Origin: an uncultured Planctomycetaceae bacterium
Lineage (GTDB): Bacteria > Planctomycetota > Planctomycetia > Planctomycetales > Planctomycetaceae
Direction of reading: 5' to 3'
Length of the DNA: 64,000 nucleotides
Assembly: GCA_963815195.1 (NCBI GenBank)
Contig: CAWFGE010000019.1
Coordinates: 32,001 to 96,000, forward strand
Positions 3,519-29,338 of the stretch are shown here, in pieces. The first letter of the stretch is position 1. Every line of letters starts with the position of its first letter. Both the position numbers and the translations under genes were made by a program. The notes under the pieces were generated by a model. It was not told the origin of the DNA. It searched no databases and saw only the letters and a program-made list of their open reading frames with translations.

Positions 3519-3572
3519 TTCATCTTATCCATAATAAATGAACGGCCGGTGAATCCCAACGTGGTTTTTTTT

Positions 3573-3777
3573 TACCGCGTAGCGGTTGCATAACAAAGCC
3601 CAGGGTCGCGCAGCACACCCTGGGTAATCGGAATCACAAAATCCCTTTACGCCGAAGGCGTTACATAACACTTTTGTATAACGCCTTCGGCGTAATCCGA
3701 TGATTTCCAACCGAAACCCAGGGTGGCGCGGCTGCGCCGCTTACCCTGGGCTTTGTGATGTAACGCCTTCGGCGTAA
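3573..3777. repeat. Composite palindromic REP/REPIN-like intergenic element
   Basis: Nested inverted repeats: CCCAGGGT...ACCCTGGG twice, TACGCCGAAGGCGTTA and its reverse complement three times; the whole element is an imperfect palindrome. Confidence 0.8.
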
Positions 3778-3827
3778 AGATTTTGTAGCCAATCCTCATT
3801 AAGGATTTGCGCAGGAAACAAATCTTC

Positions 3828-15507: not shown

Positions 15508-18500
15508 CTACGGTTCCGGTCTTCCCATCTGCGGACGCCCAGACGTGAGGTGGTTCGGGGCGAGCTTCTGGAGTTGAATTGTGTCCCAAACGCGCACAAA
15601 CCCGTTTTGATCCACGGTGGCCAGAACGCGTCCGTCGGCCGAAAGACACATGCACGACAGCGCGTTGTCCGAGGTGACCACGAATTTGCTCTGTTCCGGG
15701 TTTGAGATTTGCCAGAGGCGGACTGTGCGATCCATTCCCCCCGAAATCAGTTTGTCCCCATCGGCAAGGAACGCGATGTCAACAATCTCGTCGGCATGAC
15801 CGGCCAACATCGCGATTTCCCGGCCGGTTTCCGCATCCCAGACGCGGATGACAGGGTCTCCAAAACCTCCCGCCCCGGCAATCCGCCGGCCGTCCGGAGA
15901 AAAAGCCACAGCGGTCAGTCCCCACTTATGACCTGCCAAAGTCTGCTCGCACGCTCCGGTTTCGAGATTCCATAGTCGCACGGTGTTGTCCCAACTGCCG
16001 CTGGCTAAGCGAATCCCGTCTGGCGAAAACGCCACGCTACTGATGACGCTGGTATGCCCCTCAAGAGTCTTCGCGAGTTCGCCGGTCTTCGCGTTCCACA
16101 GGACCAGTTTCTTTCCGGCCCCGCCGCCCGCGAGCCAACGGCCATCGGGAGAATATCGGATGCATTCCACGCCGCCTTCCAGCGGAGCCAACGCAATGAG
16201 TTCGGCCCCGTTTGCCGCATCGTAAACTCGGATCGTTTGCTCGCGGCTGGCAACGGCGATTTGTTTCCCATCCGGCGAAAAGGCGACCGTTGCCCCTTGG
16301 CCGGTGGGCGGGAGTTCGAGCCGCGTGTTGCCGTTCGTCACGTCCCATATCGAGATCTGTGCCGAACCCGTGGCCCCGGCAATGGACTGCCCGTCCGGTG
16401 CAAAGGACATCGAGCGCACATACTTCGTGGTGGGTTGAAACTCCTTGCGGAGGAGATTCCCTTGTGCCGCGGCGGTTTTGGACTGGGCCTGAACCAATTC
16501 GCGGCTGGCCGCGTGCCAGAGTTTCAGTTGCCGGCCTACGCGATTGGCGGACCGCAGGCCGCTGCCCGCCGCCAGCGTTCGCCCGTCGTGCGAAAAAGTC
16601 ACGGAGTAAACGACGCCGGTATGCCCACCCAACGTCAGCAGAAGCTGACGGCTTTTCAAACTCCACAATTTGACGGTGCCGTCCCAACTGGCTGTGGCCA
16701 ATGTTCGGCCATCGGGCGAGATGTCAAGCCCGTAGATCACCTCCTGATGTCCTTTCAGAACGGCCTGAAGTTTCCAATCCGCCGTGGCCCAGATGCGGGC
16801 TGTGCGGTCGTGGCCGGCGGTGACGGCGAATTTCGCATCCGGCGTGAACGCCACGTCTTCCACGTTTTCCGTATGAAAACCATCTTTCCCGGATTCGAGG
16901 TGCGCGACCAATCGGCCGGTGGCGAGGTCCCAGACTCGCAAATCCGTGGCAGGCGGGCCTTCGCGATGGCAGCAACCGGCCAACCACTTGCCGTCGGGCG
17001 AAAAGGCCAAGGCCCGAATGGTCCTCCCGGAGCCTTCGAACCGCTTCATTTCGTTGCCGGTTTCCACATCCCAGAGTCGCACCGTATTGTCGTGGCTGCC
17101 GGTCGCCACAATCCGTGAATTGGGTGAAAACGCCAGCGACCACACGGCGTCATAATGAGCCTGGATCGTGTGCAAAACCTTTCCCGTCACCGCGTCGCGG
17201 AGGACGAGCTGACCGCCCCAGGCAATGGTGGCCAGCTTCGTGCCATCGGGCGAATACGCCGCCAACGCGTCCGGCCCGAGCACCGGGTACCTGGCGAGTT
17301 CTTCGCCCGTCGGCACATCGATGATGGCCGCTCCGGGCGAGCTCGCCGCGATCCGGCGGCTATCCGGTGAGAAGGACAAGGAATAGACGTTGGCGCCCGT
17401 GCCGGAAATCGTCGTTTCGGTCAATCGGCCATCGACGTACCACAACCGCGCGGTCCGGTCCCAACTTCCGGTGGCGAGAAGTTCGCCGTCCCGCGAAAAA
17501 TCGAGGGCAACCACATAACTTTCATGTCCCAGGAACGAGTGGATTTCAGTGACTTGCTTCAGGTCCCAGAGTTTGACTTGCCGGTCCCAACTGGCCGATG
17601 CCAATCGATCGCCGGTGGGCGAAAAGGCCACCGCGGTGACGCCCACACGATGGCCCCGCAGCCGATTTTGGAGATGAAGCTCCGCAGCATCCCAAAGGAG
17701 GATCTCAGCCGGTCCGTCCCATTTGCCCGCGCCGGTCGCGAGACGTTTGCCGTCCGGGGCGAACTTCACCGACCAGACCGGGCCGGTGTGGCGACGCGAA
17801 GTTTGCTTTTGAGCACCGCTTGCGACGTCCCAGGTCCGCAGCACGGCGTCCCAACCGCCGGCGGCCAGCCGTTCTCCATCGGGAGAAAAATCCAGCGAGA
17901 GAATCCCGCCGCTCGATCCGCTTAATGTCCGCACACGGTTGCCGTTTATCGCATCCCACAAGACGACTTCCCCGAAACGCTTTAGGCCCGAAATCCAAAT
18001 CAGCCGAGTCAGAGGCGTGCCGCCCTCTCCTTCATACCTCGCCGTGCCGGTCGCCACGGTTTTTCCATCCGGCGAAAATGCGACCGCCATGACGGTCTCG
18101 GGCATTGCGGTTGATGGTTCCAACGCCGAAAGCAATTTCGCATTAGCCGGATCCATCACGACGGCCCGCGCCAGATTTCCTTCGCCCTGTCCGCCGATCG
18201 CCAGACAATTTCCGTCGGGCGAGTAGTCGAGCGACCAGACCTCGTGGAATCCCGAGCGGAGCGAGCGTTCGGGTTTTCCGGTGGCGACCTCCCACAGAGT
18301 CACCCCGCCCCCCGCGCCGCCCGCGGTCGCCAACTGCCGGCCGTCGGGCGAAAACGCCACCGCCCGGACGGTGTCGGCCAAGGCCAGCACTTGCCGCTCG
18401 CTATGGCAAAGCTGCCAGAGGTAATACCACTCGAATCCCCGCAGATCCGTCTGACCTTGGGTCGGAACGTGATGATTCAAAAGCTCGAGCACCCGCTCGA

Positions 18501-20240
18501 TGTTGGCCGCCTGGAACTCGCGCTGCGCGAGCTGGATTTCACTGGCATAGAGATCCTGCCGGCGCTCGTCGGCCAAACGGTCCGCTTCCTTGCGCAGCCG
18601 CTGTTCCTCGCGCCGGGCCTTCTCGGCGACATCCCGCGCATCTTCAGCGCGTGCTTGGGCATCGACGGCATCTCCCAGAGCGGTTTCCCGATCGGCCGCC
18701 ACCTCGCGGTATTCCGTGGCGGCCAGCACGGATCCGAACGTCACCGCCAACAAGAGGGCGGCAATCAATCCGCAGAGGGATGCGATCGCCGGATTTCTCC
18801 GGGACCAGCGCGTCAGCCGCTCCACGCGCGAAAGCCGTGCGCCCGAATCGGTTCATCCGCCAGGAATCGCTCAAGATCGGCCCCCAGTTCCCCGGCGGTT
18901 TGGTAACGGCGATTGGGATCGAGATCAATGGCTTTTTGCACGATCGTCGCCAGGTCGCGCGGAATGGCCGAGTTGATATGCTCCAAGCGTTGGGGCTCAG
19001 AGCTTGTGACCTGCGAAATCAATTTGTGCCGGTCCTTTTCGCCAAACGCCGGACGCATGGCCAGGAGTTCGTAAAGCGTCAGTCCTAAGGAATACACATC
19101 GCTGCGAACATCGGTTTTTCCTTCAAAAGCTTCAGGCGGCATGTAGCGCAGTGTTCCGAGAATGTCTCCGGTGTGGGTGATGTCTTGTTGGTCGGCGGCT
19201 TTGGCGAGGCCGAAATCCGTGACCCACACCGTACCTTTCAAATCCAAGAGCAGGTTTGAGGGCTTGATGTCCCGGTGCAAGATTCCCTGCTCATGCGCAT
19301 ATTCCAAGGCGTCGGCCACTTGCCGGCCGACGCGGGCGATGCTGTGCCAATACGTCGCGTGTCGGCGGTCGCCCGACGATTCCGGCGCCCGTGTCGTTCC
19401 AAGCAAGGGAAGACTGGCTGAGGAATCGGAAATCTGGAACGTATCCGACAGCCGTTCCACCGTCGAAGGGGATTTCTCGGCCGGGAGACTTGCCGGAACC
19501 GCCGTTTCCAACGTCACGCCGGAATGGCCGCCGGACACCGCTTCGCCCAACACGGTCGGGGCCAGTTGTCCGCTCATCAACGAACGGGACACCATTTCCA
19601 CCGACACGTCCCGCCTCCGCTCAATCTTCAGTTCGGCCGTCGGCGGGAGGTTTTTCTGTTCGGCGGAATCGGACTGCAATTGCAGGAGCTCTTCAATGAC
19701 CTGGTCCAACCCCAGCCCCTGAATAAACTGCATGATGTAATAGTGCACGCCGTCCTGTTCCCCGACGCCAAACACCGGAACGATGTTCGTATGATGCAGC
19801 CGGGCTGCGGATTTCACTTCGCGATCGAATCGCCGGCGATGCTGCTCGTCGAGCAGCATTTGCTGGGGCAGTACTTTGAGGGCGACGTGCCGGCCCAGCG
19901 AGACTTGTTCCGCCTCGTAGACGATGCCCATTCCGCCACGCCCAATTTCACGAAGGATGCGAAAGTCTCCGAGTTGCTTGAGTTCCGGATTTCGCAACTC
20001 AGCCAACCCAGGCGGCGATGAGTCGTCAAACGATCGCACATCCTCCATTTCGACCAGAAGCGGAAACAACTCCCGAATCTCATTCGCCCATTCGGGATGC
20101 TGTTTCGTGTACTCGGAGAGAGCCGGCCGTTCTCCCCGCCGGAATCGTTCCACAAACTCGTCCGCCAGCATTTCCACCGGATTGCGAATTTCGGATTCGG
20201 TCATCGCTTGCCTCACAGGAATGGTTCGTGGATCGGTCAA
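15508..20240 (-). CDS. Membrane-anchored Ser/Thr kinase with many C-terminal WD40 repeats, split by a 1-bp frameshift near 18835
   Basis: IGRGGMGIVY, HRDIKPSN, DFGLAK and GTLRYMPPE in 18813-20240; ADEPIRA joins to VERLTRWSRRNP, a TM helix, LRGFEWYYLW and over 15 GH...WD repeats in 15508-18825. Confidence 0.9.
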
Positions 20241-20881
20241 TGGGTTTCCCCGCGGGCTTCCTCCAGGATTTCCTTCATCCGCTTGAGCGCCCGCACGTAG
20301 CGATTGCTTGCCGCGGCTTGGGAGATTTCCAGCACTTTCGCCGCCTCCGCATTGGTCAACATCTCGAAATGCCGGAGCGTCAGCACCTCGCGGTCAATCG
20401 GATCCATCGCATTGAGCGCCTCTTGGATTTGCAGCTTCGACTCGGCCCGCATGGCGGCCCGGCTGGGTGAGGTCATTTTCCCAAGCAATTGGGCGGCCAA
20501 GGCAAACGAGGTCGCCTGCGGCATGGGGCCGCGATAGATCGAAACGTCGCGGCCGGCGTCGCGTTGTTGCACGCCGAGATGATGCCGATGCAAATCCGTC
20601 AGCTTCTGGCCCACGACCAGGCGCAGCCAAAGGAAAAACGGCAGGTTCTCCTTCTCCGAAAAAGACGGCAACCTGCGGCTGGCATCCAGATAAGCGTCTT
20701 GCAGGACATCGGACGGATCGACCCGGCCTTGGAGCCTGCGGTCCAGACGCAATCGGACCATCTGCCGGAGACGCTTTCGATACCGGTCGAACAACTCCGC
20801 CAGAGCCGCCTCTTCGCCGGCCTTCGCCTGGACCAGCAGATCGTCCAAGTTGTCGCTTTCCGCATTCATGATGACTCCCAC
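20237..20881 (-). CDS. ECF sigma factor, kinase-associated type
   Basis: RLRQMVRLRLDRRLQGRVDPSDVLQDAY (sigma2) and DREVLTLRHFEMLTNAEAAKVL (sigma4); stop overlaps the kinase start. Confidence 0.93.
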   Translation of the reverse strand: MGVIMNAESDNLDDLLVQAKAGEEAALAELFDRYRKRLRQMVRLRLDRRLQGRVDPSDVLQDAYLDASRRLPSFSEKENLPFFLWLRLVVGQKLTDLHRHHLGVQQRDAGRDVSIYRGPMPQATSFALAAQLLGKMTSPSRAAMRAESKLQIQEALNAMDPIDREVLTLRHFEMLTNAEAAKVLEISQAAASNRYVRALKRMKEILEEARGETH

Positions 20882-20939: not shown

Positions 20940-21105
20940 GGTTTGCGGGCCATAGTCCCACAATCCGCTCCGCGTTCCTTCAATCTTCACCAACCGCTGA
21001 TCGATCTTCTGTCGCTGGCCCGGACGAGGGCCAACCGTCTCGAACGATGCCTCGTCCACACGCGAGCCATGATAGATTTTGCCGGTCGTCAGGGTCTTAT
21101 AGCCG
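20940..21105 (-). pseudogene. Internal fragment of a sulfatase-like gene
   Basis: GYKTLTTGKIYH matches the sulfatase GYxTxxxGKxxH motif; no start or C-terminus. Confidence 0.5.
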
Positions 21106-21301
21106 CCCAGAAGAGGATCACCGAGAAATCGCGGTCCACCCGCGACGGAGCGTTGTTGATTTCGGATTCGGAAGCCAGGAGCTGTGTTAGACTGGGCGGC
21201 AATCCTGCGGCGAGTGCTCCCAGGCTGAGCCCGCCGATTCGGAGCCATTCCCGCCGGGTGATCGGGCCAGGGGACCAAATGTCCTTCGATCGTGGCTGCA
21301 C
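21105..21301 (-). pseudogene. N-terminal fragment of a DUF1501-like gene
   Basis: TRREWLRIGGLSLG...SVILFWA parallels the N-terminus of the intact DUF1501 at 13694; ends abruptly. Confidence 0.6.
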
Positions 21302-21572
21302 GAACCAGTTCCCCCGCGTTTAATGATTTTTAGCATGTTCCAATACGGCATGCTACCCGATCGGTTGAGAACTTGACAATCATGGGCACATAGGCAGCTG
21401 GCTCGGCCTGATCGTCTTTCTGAATATCGAACTCCATGAGTCTTCCCGCACATAATCAAGTTGACATGCACTCGAACACTTGAAGTGAAGAACCTCTTAA
21501 CAGTAAAACTCGTCATTGACATTCATTTTAGGTTCTACAATAGCAACCGCTTTGAAAGAAAGGTTTCGGGTG

Positions 21573-21950
21573 ATGGCGAAAAAAGGGGGAGTCAACCGAA
21601 CGGAAAAAGTTCGCGAGTACATGCTGGCGAATCCCGATCAGACAAATGCCGAGGCGTTCCGCGGACTCGAGGCCCAGGGAACCCATGTGTCCCACAGTCT
21701 GATCAGCCAGGTGCGGAAGCAAATGGGCTTCCCGCAGGGCGGTAGCACAAAAAAAAGGGCCGGCAAGAAGAAGGCCAAAAAGAAAGTCGGCCAGAAAAAA
21801 ACATCGATGGCTCAACCTGCCTCAGCACCGACTGCCCGGGGACGGGCCATTACGGCAGAAGATCTGTTTGAGGCCAAAAAGTTGGCCGACGATTTGGGCG
21901 GGCTGGAGCGGGTACGAGAGGCATTGGATGCTTTGGAGCGGTTGCGGTAG
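21573..21950 (+). CDS. Small basic putative DNA-binding (nucleoid-associated-like) protein, 125 aa
   Basis: Helical N-domain (NRTEKVREYM...SLISQVR), Lys-rich linker (KKRAGKKKAKKK), C-domain GGLERVREALDALERLR; followed by a hairpin. Confidence 0.75.
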   Translation: MAKKGGVNRTEKVREYMLANPDQTNAEAFRGLEAQGTHVSHSLISQVRKQMGFPQGGSTKKRAGKKKAKKKVGQKKTSMAQPASAPTARGRAITAEDLFEAKKLADDLGGLERVREALDALERLR

Positions 21951-21967
21951 CAAAACCCAGAAGCCGA

Positions 21968-22009
21968 AATGACAAAGCCTCACGCGTTTTGTGGTGAGGC
22001 TTTGTCATT
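21968..22009. terminator. Hairpin, likely a bidirectional terminator between convergent small genes
   Basis: 16-bp perfect stem AATGACAAAGCCTCAC / GTGAGGCTTTGTCATT. Confidence 0.7.
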
Positions 22010-22026
22010 CAAGGACAAAGAAAGGC

Positions 22027-22185
22027 TCATGCCGATTTTCGCAGTCGAGCCAACTCATCCAGGGCGAGTTTCGCTCGCTCAACCCCGCCCATCTTCTGCA
22101 CAAAGTCCTGAATCTTCAGAACCTCCTGTTCCGCGATCCCCTTTTTGCCCCTGATGGCGTTTTGTTTACTCTTTCCTTGTTCCAT
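22027..22185 (-). CDS. 52-aa protein homologous to the C-terminus of the neighbouring basic protein (absent from the ORF track)
   Basis: MEQGKSKQNAIRGKKGIAEQEVLKIQDFVQKMGGVERAKLALDELARLRKSA; GGGAGG RBS 5 nt upstream; GGVERAKLALDELARLR aligns with GGLERVREALDALERLR. Confidence 0.75.
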   Translation of the reverse strand: MEQGKSKQNAIRGKKGIAEQEVLKIQDFVQKMGGVERAKLALDELARLRKSA

Positions 22186-22344
22186 TTGAGCCTCCCATTG
22201 GATTTCGATAACTCCCTAATTGCCATCTCTATCATCGGCAGGCAAAGTTACGCTATTCCACCAGACTTCCCCACCTGCCGCTCAGGAAACTTGGTGAAAC
22301 TGTTCCACCAAGAAAGGAACGTCTTCCAAGCATTTTGACGGCCG

Positions 22345-22600
22345 CCGACTTGAACCCGTTCTTCGCCCGATTGCCTGAGGGAACGGCGGTCTGGTTTCCG
22401 GCCGGGGCCAAATACCGGATCGACGGGACCTTGCTGCTGGATGAAGAACAACCTCACCCTTGAAGGAACGGCGTTCTGTTTCGTGCCTTTGATCGCGGTG
22501 AAAACCACAGCAAACAGGAGAACTACACCGACTGGAAACAGACCCGGAATCGCGCCCATTTCCGTATCGTCGGCGGGCGGAATGTTGCGTCCGGGATGTC
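22345..22600 (+). pseudogene. Frameshifted fragment of a pectate-lyase-like beta-helix gene
   Basis: Pieces in different frames read AVWFPAGAKYRIDGTLLL, NNLTLEG and RNRAHFRIVGGRNV. Confidence 0.45.
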
Positions 22601-22717
22601 GAAGTGCATGGGGCGCGTCCTGACGGTGCTTGCCAAAATTCTTGCCACCAAGTGCGCTTGCCAGTAATGGCAAATGAAAAAGCCTCGCAAGTCATTAACC
22701 TGCAAGGCTTTAAGTAG

Positions 22718-22792
22718 TGGACGATACTGGACTCGAACCAGTGACCTCCACGATGTCAACGTGGCGCTCTAACCAAACTGAGCTAATCGTCC
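22718..22792 (-). tRNA. tRNA-Val(GAC)
   Basis: Cloverleaf with GGACGAT/ATCGTCC acceptor stem, CCACG-TTGACAT-CGTGG anticodon arm and TTCGAGT T-loop. Confidence 0.97.
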
Positions 22793-25497: not shown

Positions 25498-28400
25498 ATG
25501 TCCATTGCTTCTCCTCAATCGCAATCTGCTCCCCTGACTGAGGCCGAGTTGAAGCGGCGGATTGATGAGGTGGAGCAGCGGCTCACGGCGTTCCGGCGGG
25601 AGCAGGAGTCCCGAACTCTGACCCTCCCCCAAGAAGCGGCGGAAACGTTGGCGGAGATCGAGCAGGAGGTCATCGAGCTCGCGGGGCACTTAATTCAATC
25701 CGGAGCCCGGTTGGACGGCAATGCGCTTCTGGCCGATGTCCAGGGGCTTCAAGCTCTTTGCGAGCGGCTGGGATTGGATTCCGCCGCGATCGCCGCCGCG
25801 GAGTTGACGTTTGCGGATTTGGAATATACCGCGGAGGCTTGGAAGGAATCGCTGTCGCCGATTCTGCAAAACCCCGAGCCGGATGCGTGCTTCACGGCTC
25901 TTGTGCAGACGACGGCTTACGAACTCGAAGCGGAAAGCCACGATCCCAATCGCATGACCCGGCAGACGGTGTTCGCGGAGATCCGCCAGGACCTTCGGCA
26001 GGCGTTTCGAAGCGCAATCGAAAGAGACGCCGCCGAGTTTGGAGACCCGCAATCGCTGGGTGCGGGATTTGATCGACCGGGCGGATTTGACGCTCACCAG
26101 CGTGGACAGCCTGCCCAGCGACCGGGCGGCGATGCAGCTCGAAATCGTCGCCGAGGATTTGCGCTGGCATTTGGAGCATGTGGAAACCCGCCGAAGCAGC
26201 CGCCGCCGCCGGCTCAAGCGGAAGCTGTTCCAACTCGAAGCCGAGCGGCAGGAACGCGACCTGCAAGCCCGGCTGTACCAGAAGTTCGGCCGGCCGTTGG
26301 TCAAGTGGATGGATCGCTTGATCCTGTTTTTGATCCTCGCAGTCGTGGGGTTGATTCTCGTCGACAGCTTCAGCGATCTCTCGGAGCGCACGAAGATCGC
26401 GCTTTACATCTTCGACGGCACGGCGTGCTCCATTTTCCTGTTGGAGTTTTTCGTCAAGCTCGCGATGGTCCGCCGAAAGTGGCTGTGGTTCTGGCGGCAT
26501 TTCTTCATCGACTTTGTGCCCTCGGTTCCGATTGGACTTCTGGTGATCCTTCTGCCGGGAGCGGCCGCGCGGGCGATCAAGTATGTGTTTCTGCTCCGGT
26601 TCGCGAGGTTTCTGCGCGGGTTCGGTTTGATGGCCCGCGGGTTTGATCGGTTGGCCCGGCAGTATGGGCATGTGCTCAATCAGAACGTGATCCTCTATCC
26701 GACCCGCGAGGAACTCGACAACTCCCGCAGCCGATTGCCCACCCATTGCGCCCGGCTCGTGCGGTTGCGGGAGCAGGTGCATCAAAGTTGGGGAGCCTGT
26801 TTGACGAACATGCCGGCCGCCGACCGTCCCGCGGCGGTGGGCCGCCGATTGGCGATGTTTTCCGAAGCCTTGGCCCAGCGGCGCGAGCGGGAAACGATCT
26901 CGGCGTTGGCACCGCGGGCGCCGGCCCGCGAGATCGCGGCGGAGGTGTTGATTCAGCATCTCTCCACAATGACGCCCCAAGCCGCGGAGGTCGGGCTGGG
27001 ACCGGAACTGGTTATGCAACTTGCGGGCGGCGTGCGGATGCTCGCGCGGGTGCCGTTTCGCTGGCTGCCGATCATTTCTTCGCTCGTGCCTCGGATCACG
27101 AAGGGCATGACCGATGCCGACGTCGTCGCGGCGGCGTCCCGGCAGACGGCCCGCGTGGTCCGGCGGTTTCACAACGCCTACTTCTGGTTCGCCGACCTTT
27201 ACGGCACCGTGACGCCGTCGCAGTTCGTGGACCGGGTGGGCGGGATGCTCGTCAAAAGCTCGTTTCGGCCGGCGTATCGCATGCTGCTCTTTGGCGGTTT
27301 GTATGGCCTGATCCTATTGCTGTTGAGTGTCGTCCCGTGGCTCAGCGAGTTGGAATCGTTCAAAAAATACTTTGAACGCTTTGTCGGCGACGTGGTGTTG
27401 ATCGTGGGCAGCGTTTCGTTTTTGATTCTGGGCCTGGGCTGGTGGCTGCAGCGCGTGGCCCGGGAGGCGACGGAGTTTTTCGAGCGCTCTGCGCAGGCTC
27501 AGTTTTTGTCGCTGACGGAAATTATCCGCAGCCGTTATTTGGAACGCGACGCCGAGCTGCTCTGCGTCCGCGTGTTGGGACCGGAACGCCAACTCATGCT
27601 GCCCGAAGAGCCGATGCCCGAGGAGGCCGAGGTCCAGCAGGTGCTCGGGCGGATTCACCAGGCGCTGGTCGAAGCCCACTTGGGTTCGGGCAACGGCGGC
27701 GGCTGGCGGGGGCTGGATACCGTGATGCTTCTGTACCGCGACTGGCTGGACGGGGCGATTCTTCACGACAACGACACGCGATCGACCAGCCAGCTTCTGG
27801 GCAGCCCCGCGGTCCGACAAGTGCTGAGTTTGTCCTCGCGGATTCGGCCCAAAGAACTCAAGCAGCTTTACGCCCTCGATCTCGTCCGGCAGAAGTCGCT
27901 GTTTGGCGGACCTTATCTCTGGTTCAACTTCGTCGCCCGCTCGATCGCGCATGGGGCGGCGAACCTGATCATCGATTACAACCAGAACGCGATCCCCTTA
28001 AACGAAGTCCCGCACATCAGCGAGAGCCAGCGGCGGCATTATGAGAATTGGGCCGAGGGCCGAACCGAGAACAACGTCGCCACCGAAACCCCGGAAGAAG
28101 ACGTCGAGCGGGATTACGTCACCAATGCATTTACCGCGCTGCATTTTTTGGACTTCGACGAACAGCGGGATCGGGAAGTCGCCGAGCGATTCGGCGGCGA
28201 AGTGTTGGACCGATTGGTCCGCGACCGCAGCCATTTGATCCGCCGCATCTTCGGCACCTTCCCCATGCACGACCGGCCCAAGGAGCAGCGGGTCGTCAAT
28301 TTGTATTCGCTGTATGGCTCGTGGCTCTCCGGCGGGCGGGCGCTGTTTCTGCCTTGGTTCTTGTTTCTGCTCGGGCTCAAGCTGTTGGGAAACCTCTTGG

Positions 28401-29338
28401 TGTGGGTCGCGCGTTCGGTCGAGCAAATCCGCCGGCCGGAATCCCGCCGGGACAGCGGCGACGCGGCGAAGGCCCATTTCCTCACCGCGGTGCGAAAGAT
28501 CGAACGCATCCGAGGCCCGGTGGTTTATGCGAGCACGCGCCTGCGGATGCGGATCGATCCCGAATTCCTGAACGTCCCCTTGCCGGGGCAGACGCGAACG
28601 ATGCTGGGCGATGCCTCGATCGAACGCGACCTGCAGTTCTTGCATCCGGTGCCGGAGTTTCTCGACGAAGTCAACGAGCAGCGCCGCCGGGCCCAGGCCG
28701 ACATGGCCCGGCTCAATGGCTTGATCGAAACCGGCCTGCTCGAACGGTGCGCGAAACAGAGGGGATTGCCCGACGATGCGTTCCTGACGCCCGAACATTT
28801 GAGGGCCTGTGCGGTGGCGTATCTGGCGGATTACCGCGGCGTGCGGTCCAGGCTCTCGGCTCCGGCGATACTCGATGAAGTGGTTCGCCTCGCGGAGAGC
28901 GAACCCGTCCGGCCCGGCAAACGGATTCCGCATTGGCTCTTCAAGCGAAAGTTCAAACGCTATTGGGCGAAGCGGGGTTTCGGCGACCGCCACGCCCGCC
29001 GCTGCGCCTGGCGGGCGATCCTCAACAACCTCTGGGGTTCCGCCGACGCGTTGGCGGAGTGGTCCGAAGAAACCGAATCGTCTCGGAAGTCAAAATTGAA
29101 ACCTAACGCGACCTTCGCGGAGCGAAGGACGACCGCCCCGGAATTCTCTCCAAAGCGCGGCGAAGAACTCTTGGGCGAACTCTTGCTGCATCCCGGCCGG
29201 ATTTCCGAGCAGCTCGTCACCGTGCGGGCCATTCAAACCTTGGCGGTGATGGACGTGCTCTGCTACCGCGAACACATCTACCACCTCGGCCGCTACCACG
29301 AAATGGGCGACGCCGCCAACGGACTGTTGACATGGTGA
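25498..29338 (+). CDS. Large membrane protein with an ion-transport (S1-S4)-like domain; frameshift near 26021
   Basis: Removing one A in GAAAGAG joins 25498-26020 to the 26039-29338 ORF (about 1280 aa); IFLLEFFVKL, FFIDFVPSVP and LRFARFLRGF helices. Confidence 0.7.

Follow-up and report, generated by a model that had tools for sequence, protein, structure and literature searches.

An unnamed pair of planctomycete genes, probably similar in action to a known silencer/modulator system

In the Enterobacteriaceae, H-NSB, or Hfp, and H-NST share tRNA-linked islands (serU, IE3, EARL); as described in PMC7074111, H-NST acts through heterodimers, and the short forms make up a clade of their own. In Bacillus, sRok is reported to occur nearly only together with Rok, and modulation through heterodimers has been proposed (PMC9757077). 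Nucleoid-associated proteins are defined in PMC11894785 as small, abundant DNA-binding proteins that act genome-wide with low specificity and structure the DNA, and those that PMC3440768 names for planctomycetes are HU/IHF (PF00216).

We analyzed a window of 64,000 nucleotides from an uncultured Planctomycetaceae bacterium, in which a basic 125-aa protein and a 52-aa relative of its C-terminal domain are encoded by convergent genes near a tRNA gene. Like H-NS or H-NSB with H-NST, the pair combines a predicted two-domain DNA binder with a short homologue that carries the interaction domain only, a role that we infer for its hairpin, and both systems are found at tRNA-linked islands. Unlike in H-NS, where oligomerisation is N-terminal and DNA binding C-terminal, the domain order is reversed, with the HTH at the N terminus and the hairpin at the C terminus; moreover, the predicted DNA-binding domain is a three-helix HTH present in up to three copies, and a separate acidic, chromosomal hairpin-only form exists. 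The resemblance to Rok and sRok is that of a smaller relative nearly confined to genomes with the main protein, whereas sRok, according to PMC9757077, keeps the DNA-binding domain and lacks the linker only, and Rok dimerises by its N terminus.

We found no match to PF00816, the H-NS DNA-binding domain with its Q/RGR motif, in either protein or in 94 family members, and no homology of the short family to the H-NS oligomerisation domain in Pfam, NCBIfam or PDB sequence searches. The Pfam and NCBIfam scans gave no match to Rok, and the family domains of the xenogeneic silencers Lsr2, MucR and MvaT (PF11774, PF05443 and PF22055) were absent among the 25 families listed for the 94 members or the 125-aa protein. 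The host genome encodes no recognizable H-NS (the control matched in E. coli), Lsr2 or MucR (controls matched); the MvaT genome search had no matching positive control.

Two convergent genes and the hairpin between them

The pair comprises the following features, in window coordinates:

21480..21509, plus strand: promoter-like motif TTGAAG-N18-TAAAAC 5′ of the long gene, a putative promoter by conservation
21555..21563, plus strand: ribosome-binding site of the long gene, AAAGAAAGG, from the sequence, with a similar purine tract in the other four aligned upstream regions
21573..21950, plus strand: long gene P0001, 125 aa, pI 10.4, net charge +13
21597..21725, plus strand: predicted three-helix HTH (ArgR/Fur/Tc1-paired-like), residues 9-51, from AlphaFold and weak profile and fold matches
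21729..21848, plus strand: Lys/Arg-rich linker, residues 53-92, net charge +13, predicted disordered (pLDDT 50-65)
21849..21947, plus strand: helix-GG-helix hairpin, residues 93-125, likely dimerisation module, from AlphaFold and a conserved apolar pattern
21968..22009, no strand: perfect 16-bp inverted repeat between both stops (arms 21968-21983 and 21994-22009), likely shared terminator
22027..22185, minus strand: short gene P0002, hairpin-only, 52 aa, net charge +5, pN/pS 0.12-0.24
22191..22196, minus strand: ribosome-binding site of the short gene, GGGAGG, from the sequence
22229..22238, minus strand: motif CCGATGATAG 5′ of the short gene, possible promoter element by conservation

The Lys-rich long ORF is present and ends exactly as the first-pass annotation had quoted it, as does the minus-strand ORF of 52 aa, whose GGGAGG, rated there as a good ribosome-binding site, indeed lies 5 nt 5′ of the ATG. 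Upstream of type-A long genes, TTGAAG is found in four of five regions and TA(G/A)AA in all five; the promoter-like motif is absent from the sigma-70 scan output. Among nine aligned upstream regions of short genes, six carry CCGATG and the remaining three CCGATC, and the starts of these genes are likewise preceded by ribosome-binding sites. The convergence of both genes on one 16-bp hairpin, also noted at first sight, was borne out. For the RNA between the two genes, the folding energy is −28.5 kcal/mol (z −4.7), which 0 of 200 shuffles equalled or bettered, and the other five convergent loci that were folded have hairpins of −17 to −34 kcal/mol between the stops, so that a strong hairpin is found at 6/6 such genome loci. 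Their RNAalifold consensus is weak (−2.5 kcal/mol) because the two sequence types do not align, though each folds individually. The terminator scan did not report the inverted repeat. From 21930 to 22182 the sequence agrees, with 0 differences, with a 253-nt contig from a public DNA run, which may not be independent of the assembly; the public contigs leave 21463-21915 uncovered and are uninformative there.

The short ORF, whose conservation had been proposed as a check, is a genuine gene under purifying selection. Its full-length relatives are 51-52 aa long and 65-83% identical, and over the last 36 codons of five type-A short genes pN/pS is 0.12-0.24 in all 10 pairs, with 47/27/194 differences at codon positions 1/2/3. 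The pN/pS values and the codon-position pattern rule out a chance or antisense frame. Four type-B short genes show weaker selection, with pN/pS of 0.17-0.96.

Given 94 sequences, AlphaFold predicts three HTH helices in the long protein (residues 9-19, 25-34 and 41-51, pLDDT about 90) and two helices in its hairpin (95-107 and 111-124, pLDDT 89-95); the short protein is predicted to be a two-helix hairpin, with no HTH in the ORF. Matches to the HTH are weak yet consistent, and would be compatible with any HTH regulator. Its profile finds Sleeping Beauty RED (5unk, E 0.0014) and ArgR (E 0.011) weakly among PDB sequences; Foldseek returns FapR, Pax, Fur and ArgR, all at E above 0.09; and the best fold-search match, again weak, is to Zur (Z 6.0, rmsd 3.6 over 61 residues). 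PF01316 and PF01498 are matched weakly by 10 and 14 of the 94 members, respectively, all under the curated cut-offs. The predicted three-helix HTH is of the kind seen in ArgR/AhrC (PF01316), in the paired-like domain of Tc1/mariner (PF01498, 5unk) and in the N-terminal domain of Fur. Unlike these proteins, the long protein has no predicted wing and no arginine-binding, metal-binding or catalytic domain, and its C-terminal hairpin is unrelated; it does not qualify as an ArgR member, PF01316 reaching E 0.0032 at best, under the cut-off, with no C-terminal ArgR domain. Judging from these models, the HTH and basic linker very probably bind DNA. Apolar residues occupy about 13/33 positions of the hairpin, which would exceed what two short helices can bury alone, and we consider it likely that the hairpin oligomerises.

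The short protein, its relatives and its predicted partner

The first-pass annotation had described the short protein as a copy of the long protein's own C-terminal domain. The two tails are indeed homologous, with 18/49 identical residues by BLASTP (pairwise E 2e-6) and a profile-profile probability of 97% for the hairpins (E 8e-11, 36 columns), but the short gene is not a copy of its neighbor. Only 11/33 hairpin residues are equal between the two proteins, and an AU test on 41 sequences (2000 replicates, few by the program's own warning) rejected type-A short proteins and type-A long tails as one group (p 0.006), a single hairpin-only clade being compatible (p 0.22). In a FastTree phylogeny of 91 sequences, based on a short alignment of 32 columns, 35/35 hairpin-only proteins fell on one side with support 0.83. 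A recent duplication of the neighbor's tail is excluded by the identity, the tree and the AU test, and by these sequence comparisons the 52-mer belongs to an older hairpin-only sister family.

Using the short alignment on 301 genomes of the host's family, we found a second, larger hairpin-only group, made of acidic 48-aa proteins with RKAA-like tails. A hairpin-only profile search returned 76 proteins, 72 of them new, and 69/72 have a net charge of −5 or lower (median −10). The acidic 48-mer is the commonest hairpin-only form and occupies a fixed chromosomal site: 11/18 of its loci adjoin the same HlyIII-family gene, and at none of the 18, some of which reach contig ends, does a long gene lie within about 1.5 kb. 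A Phe at −5, a Glu at +3 and the tail are common to the basic and the acidic form, and 11/12 basic short proteins score higher with the acidic profile than with the long-hairpin profile, a comparison that the tail biases towards the acidic one. Unnamed 48-mers with a net charge of about −10 are found in genera g57, g77, g28, g51 and g8 (L075-L090, e.g., L076:1501-1644, minus strand), often directly 5′ of the HlyIII-family gene. The acidic 48-mer is thereby itself a candidate for an antagonist or a DNA mimic.

We modeled residues 86-125 of the long protein with residues 10-52 of the short one. The predicted complex scored 0.32, exactly the pass mark and by the tool's own grading weak support, against 0.00 for the best of three controls; three runs agreed in at least 90% of contacts, and the partner pLDDT was at least 69. 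The pass mark was reached by 116/157 solved pairs and 2/215 mismatched pairs, scores of 0.60 or under accounting for only 18/157 solved pairs and for both mismatches, and passes at such low scores are oftener wrong than right unless the complex is likely beforehand. Such an expectation is reasonable here, given the homology of the two parts and their largely apolar makeup. Two long-family members with two tandem hairpin turns (P0129 and L027:1342-1860) are a hint that one such unit packs against another. In addition, helix 1 reads E..K K..D in long and K..Q D..K in basic short proteins, a swap of charges that would favor mixed complexes. We consider it fairly probable that the short and long proteins form mixed complexes.

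Alternatively, the hairpin might dock on a third protein, such as RNA polymerase, a sigma factor or a protease adaptor, with the hairpin-only proteins serving as decoys or adaptors and having no need to contact the long protein, an explanation that we regard as rather improbable. It would fit the weak long-short score of 0.32 and the upkeep of the acidic 48-mers at their own locus (11/18), away from the long gene (0/18). It would also fit the RecQ-like helicase of genome G001 (L011:1483-2874, minus strand), which ends in a stretch resembling the same hairpin. The short proteins and their acidic relatives are stand-alone hairpins that lack the Lys present in 97% of 155 long hairpins, so that the short-protein surface may serve another partner. 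Against third-protein docking stand the 0.00 of all three controls, the tandem-hairpin proteins and the tight linkage of the basic form to the long gene.

Family distribution and the tRNA-Val context

The long family amounts to 449 clusters at 50% identity (full HMMER scan, E up to 0.001), of which 150 were detailed. Among 166 proteins, 104 consist of one HTH and the hairpin, 50 have two HTH and 5 have three, the others being 4 short proteins and 3 other layouts; there is nearly always one hairpin. A GRP motif, which we take to be reminiscent of AT-hooks, occurs in 44/166 and is missing from P0001. That the family is uncharacterised, as first suggested, was confirmed by the lack of any match above cut-off for the long or short protein in Pfam, NCBIfam, PHROGs and PADLOC, the last giving 0 matches for 7 proteins. 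In the ESM Atlas, the whole long protein retrieved unnamed planctomycete clusters only and the hairpin no usable named match. The PDB sequence search with the short protein gave nothing meaningful, and the fold search with its model gave no Foldseek match under E 6 and a best Z of 4.7, to a generic two-helix arrangement, which is not evidence of a new fold. There were 0 matches in 72,556 plasmids and 0 in viral contigs, the latter with one pattern of low sensitivity. Pattern scans with the short alignment recovered 2 loci in genome contigs and 1 in metagenomes, so few that these scans must be insensitive. We found no description of this family in the largely open-access literature searched. 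Long members from cultured strains (Crateriforma conspicua, Lignipirellula cremea and Thalassoroseus pseudoceratinae) are all annotated as hypothetical.

The long gene is present in 147/301 genomes of the host's family, in 79/201 genomes of the class and in 23/24 of one other family, counts that are lower bounds since only some candidates per genome were scored. At E 1e-6 the distribution is patchy (16/48 in the host's family, 10/49 in another), and the long protein is therefore not a universal nucleoid protein. There are several long copies in a genome; the host genome holds five intact and three broken ones, whose frameshifts may be assembly errors, and four of its long loci have no short neighbor. 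In another family of the class, L005 and L006 carry compact long-family genes of 98-100 aa without the basic linker, at a shared locus about 330-460 bp past the 3′ end of tRNA-Leu(TAG).

Stand-alone full-length hairpin genes occur in 24 genomes from eight genera (23 read, one by score only). In the co-occurrence survey that the first-pass annotation had suggested, they are almost confined to genomes with the long gene: 23/24 also have it, vs. 147/301 overall, as do all 8 genera, and the one exception is a genome that is 79% complete. As the genera are related, these are not 24 independent events. The reverse association is weak, 124/147 long-gene genomes being without a hairpin-only gene (23/147 with), and none was found outside the host's family among 300 genomes of the phylum. 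The basic short gene adjoins a long gene or its remnant at 10/11 loci: at six of them the two genes converge and the long one is intact, at one they diverge, at one the convergent long gene is frameshifted, and two have only the last codons of it; the eleventh, in another genus, has none. All but two of these loci come from one genus, and two in the host genome are a recent duplicate. This duplicate is a 1.3-kb block (C10:29612-30926 and C11:17787-19091, 96% identity) that lies beside two different tRNA-Val genes and contains a sulfatase-like fragment besides a type-B pair. The long genes can be divided into subtypes A and B, and the short genes divide correspondingly; both subtypes are present in the host genome.

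Such linkage could also arise if long and short proteins acted independently, each as a homo-oligomer, and were merely transferred together on one mobile cassette. The acidic relatives are unlinked to the long gene, and at L002, L004 and L007 an intact short gene sits beside a decayed long gene, as independent action would allow; however, the genomes concerned have other long copies or fragments in trans. Together with the 23/24 co-occurrence and a linkage that holds in two old subtypes, whether the layout is convergent or divergent, this leaves independent action only a slim chance.

Two further features lie between the short gene and the neighboring tRNA gene or at that gene itself:

22679..22711, no strand: imperfect inverted repeat of 14 bp directly after the tRNA 3′ end, resembling a terminator or an att arm, from repeat and terminator scans
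22717..22792, minus strand: tRNA-Val(GAC), an integration site in the host genus, as indicated by the integrase of congener G002

The pair had been placed in a tRNA-linked island. It does follow the 3′ end of tRNA-Val(GAC) at a distance of 532 bp, in a stretch of 54% GC (lowest 3% of 2-kb windows), and three congeners hold no close equivalent of the region at 15.1-19.5 kb of the window (bar one 200-bp match) or of the ECF gene. The 3′ end of this tRNA is where a tyrosine-integrase gene of congener G002 ends, and congener G003 has the same 40 nt after the tRNA. However, no integrase was recognized by eye among the ORFs listed for 12-34 kb of the window, and the genome holds no att duplicate of the tRNA-Val(GAC) 3′ end, so that the locus looks like a decayed islet; its borders are not fixed by synteny, because the congeners are rearranged every few kilobases. 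Of the six tRNA-Val genes of the host genome, three stand in large tRNA arrays and three are solitary; the solitary ones are all followed on the 3′ side by a pair in the same orientation, at a distance of 532, 969 or 1046 bp. Thus, 3/4 pairs of the host genome lie 532-1046 bp past tRNA-Val 3′ ends, and the 1.1-kb stretches past these ends make up only 0.07% of the genome. Partial 3′-end copies of tRNA-Val(TAC) and tRNA-Val(CAC) are found on C17 and C5, respectively; the C17 copy abuts an integrase-like gene (under the Pfam cut-off), with long-gene copies 7 and 14 kb off. Near further long copies we found tRNAs, integrases, IS elements, E1/E2/JAB genes or a reverse transcriptase. The cassette seems to move with elements whose integration site is tRNA-Val.

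Other observations concern the surroundings of these loci. On C17, L047 (370132-385784) is an integrative element with the partial tRNA-Val(TAC) copy, the integrase-like gene and HTH and AAA_25 genes, and in it the long gene occurs twice, once as a fragment and once frameshifted. On C14, prokaryotic E2/ThiF and JAB genes, presumably a ubiquitin-like or CBASS-type cluster, are directly beside the divergent type-B pair (L048:4974-7801). In the window, the pair is flanked by gene debris without a Pfam match, an N-terminal fragment with a twin-arginine-like motif (21089-21301, minus strand) and a short enzyme-like fragment (22335-22463, plus strand), both recognized by eye. In keeping with a planctomycete host, the window also contains a DUF1501 gene and an ECF sigma/Ser-Thr kinase pair: at 15508-20881 (minus strand), an ECF sigma factor is followed by a Ser/Thr kinase ORF and a WD40 ORF. 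The frames of the last two join at about 18813-18825, and a frameshift seems to have broken up a single kinase-WD40 gene here. A frameshift likewise seems to divide a membrane-protein gene into two overlapping ORFs of 382 and 1099 aa (25498-29338, plus strand), in DNA that congeners have conserved, and a 210-bp element at about 3569-3780 has many copies in all three congeners.

The island setting bears on two other explanations. In one, which we judge unlikely, the long protein is a sequence-specific HTH regulator of island or neighboring genes and the short one its dedicated anti-repressor or co-regulator, the heterodimer being the same and its action local rather than chromatin-wide. The likeness of the HTH to the DNA-binding domains of ArgR, Fur and transposases would suit such a regulator, as would the island location, the patchy distribution and the two cognate long/short subtypes within one genome. 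Against this, neighboring genes are not conserved across loci, the protein combines the absence of a ligand-sensing domain with long basic linkers and 1-3 tandem HTH copies, and the long gene is near-universal (23/24) in one other family. In the other, the pair is a toxin-antitoxin-like addiction module, in which the long protein harms by DNA condensation, the short one neutralizes it, and the island is stabilized. The location on an island and the survival of the short gene after the long one at three loci are what such a module might leave behind, but the genes are convergent and separately promoted, 124/147 genomes with long matches have no hairpin-only gene, four long loci of the host genome lack a short neighbor, and PADLOC matched none of 7 proteins, all of which make an addiction module very improbable.

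A possible mechanism and its meaning

We therefore return to the proposal of a nucleoid protein and modulator pair from an uncharacterised family. The family itself, the HTH with its basic linker, the conserved short ORF and the recurrence of the pair at tRNA sites support it in part; what has to be revised is the nature of the short partner, which represents a sister family that is mostly acidic and unlinked. With respect to the definition of a nucleoid-associated protein, the long protein has 125 aa, a pI of 10.4 and a predicted HTH fold. One to three tandem HTH, basic disordered linkers and usually one hairpin favor a bridging-type binder, whereas ArgR, Fur, transposase and Pax, whose HTH come nearest, recognize specific sequences and argue against a broad one. 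Like HU/IHF, the long protein is small, basic and a candidate chromosome organizer of planctomycetes; unlike them, it has an unrelated fold, and the host genome encodes two separate HU/IHF genes.

In the mechanism that we propose by analogy with H-NST, and to which these models lend an even chance, a dimerising DNA-binding long protein meets a hairpin-only partner that lowers its DNA-binding valency. The long protein would bind DNA broadly via its HTH and linker and join to itself via the C-terminal hairpin; the short protein, a hairpin with no HTH, would enter the complex and leave fewer HTH per complex. By the same analogy, the net effect could be that the long protein and its paralogues in trans bridge or silence less, a consequence for which we put the chances slightly below even. 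As the short protein is itself basic, with a basic tail, a modulator that stays on the DNA is expected rather than a pure inhibitor, stronger antagonism being expected of its acidic 48-residue relatives. With promoters of their own and one terminator in common, the two genes would allow the cell to set the ratio of long to short protein.

According to PMC3440768, the proteins that condense the planctomycete nucleoid are still unidentified, and only HU-like candidates are named there. Large, unnamed and laid out like a DNA bridger, with variable DNA-binding valency and putative short modulators of its own, the family offers a directly testable nucleoid candidate. It is a tentative and, in our judgment, doubtful extension of these results that planctomycetes own an H-NS-like chromatin or silencing system of independent and reversed build, tuned by acidic chromosomal and basic island-borne hairpin-only proteins. 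If true, tRNA-Val islands would bring a basic hairpin-only protein to reset the silencing of their own DNA, the family would be a candidate for the unexplained condensed nucleoid in part of the phylum, and the logic of a silencer with a truncated antagonist would have had an independent origin.
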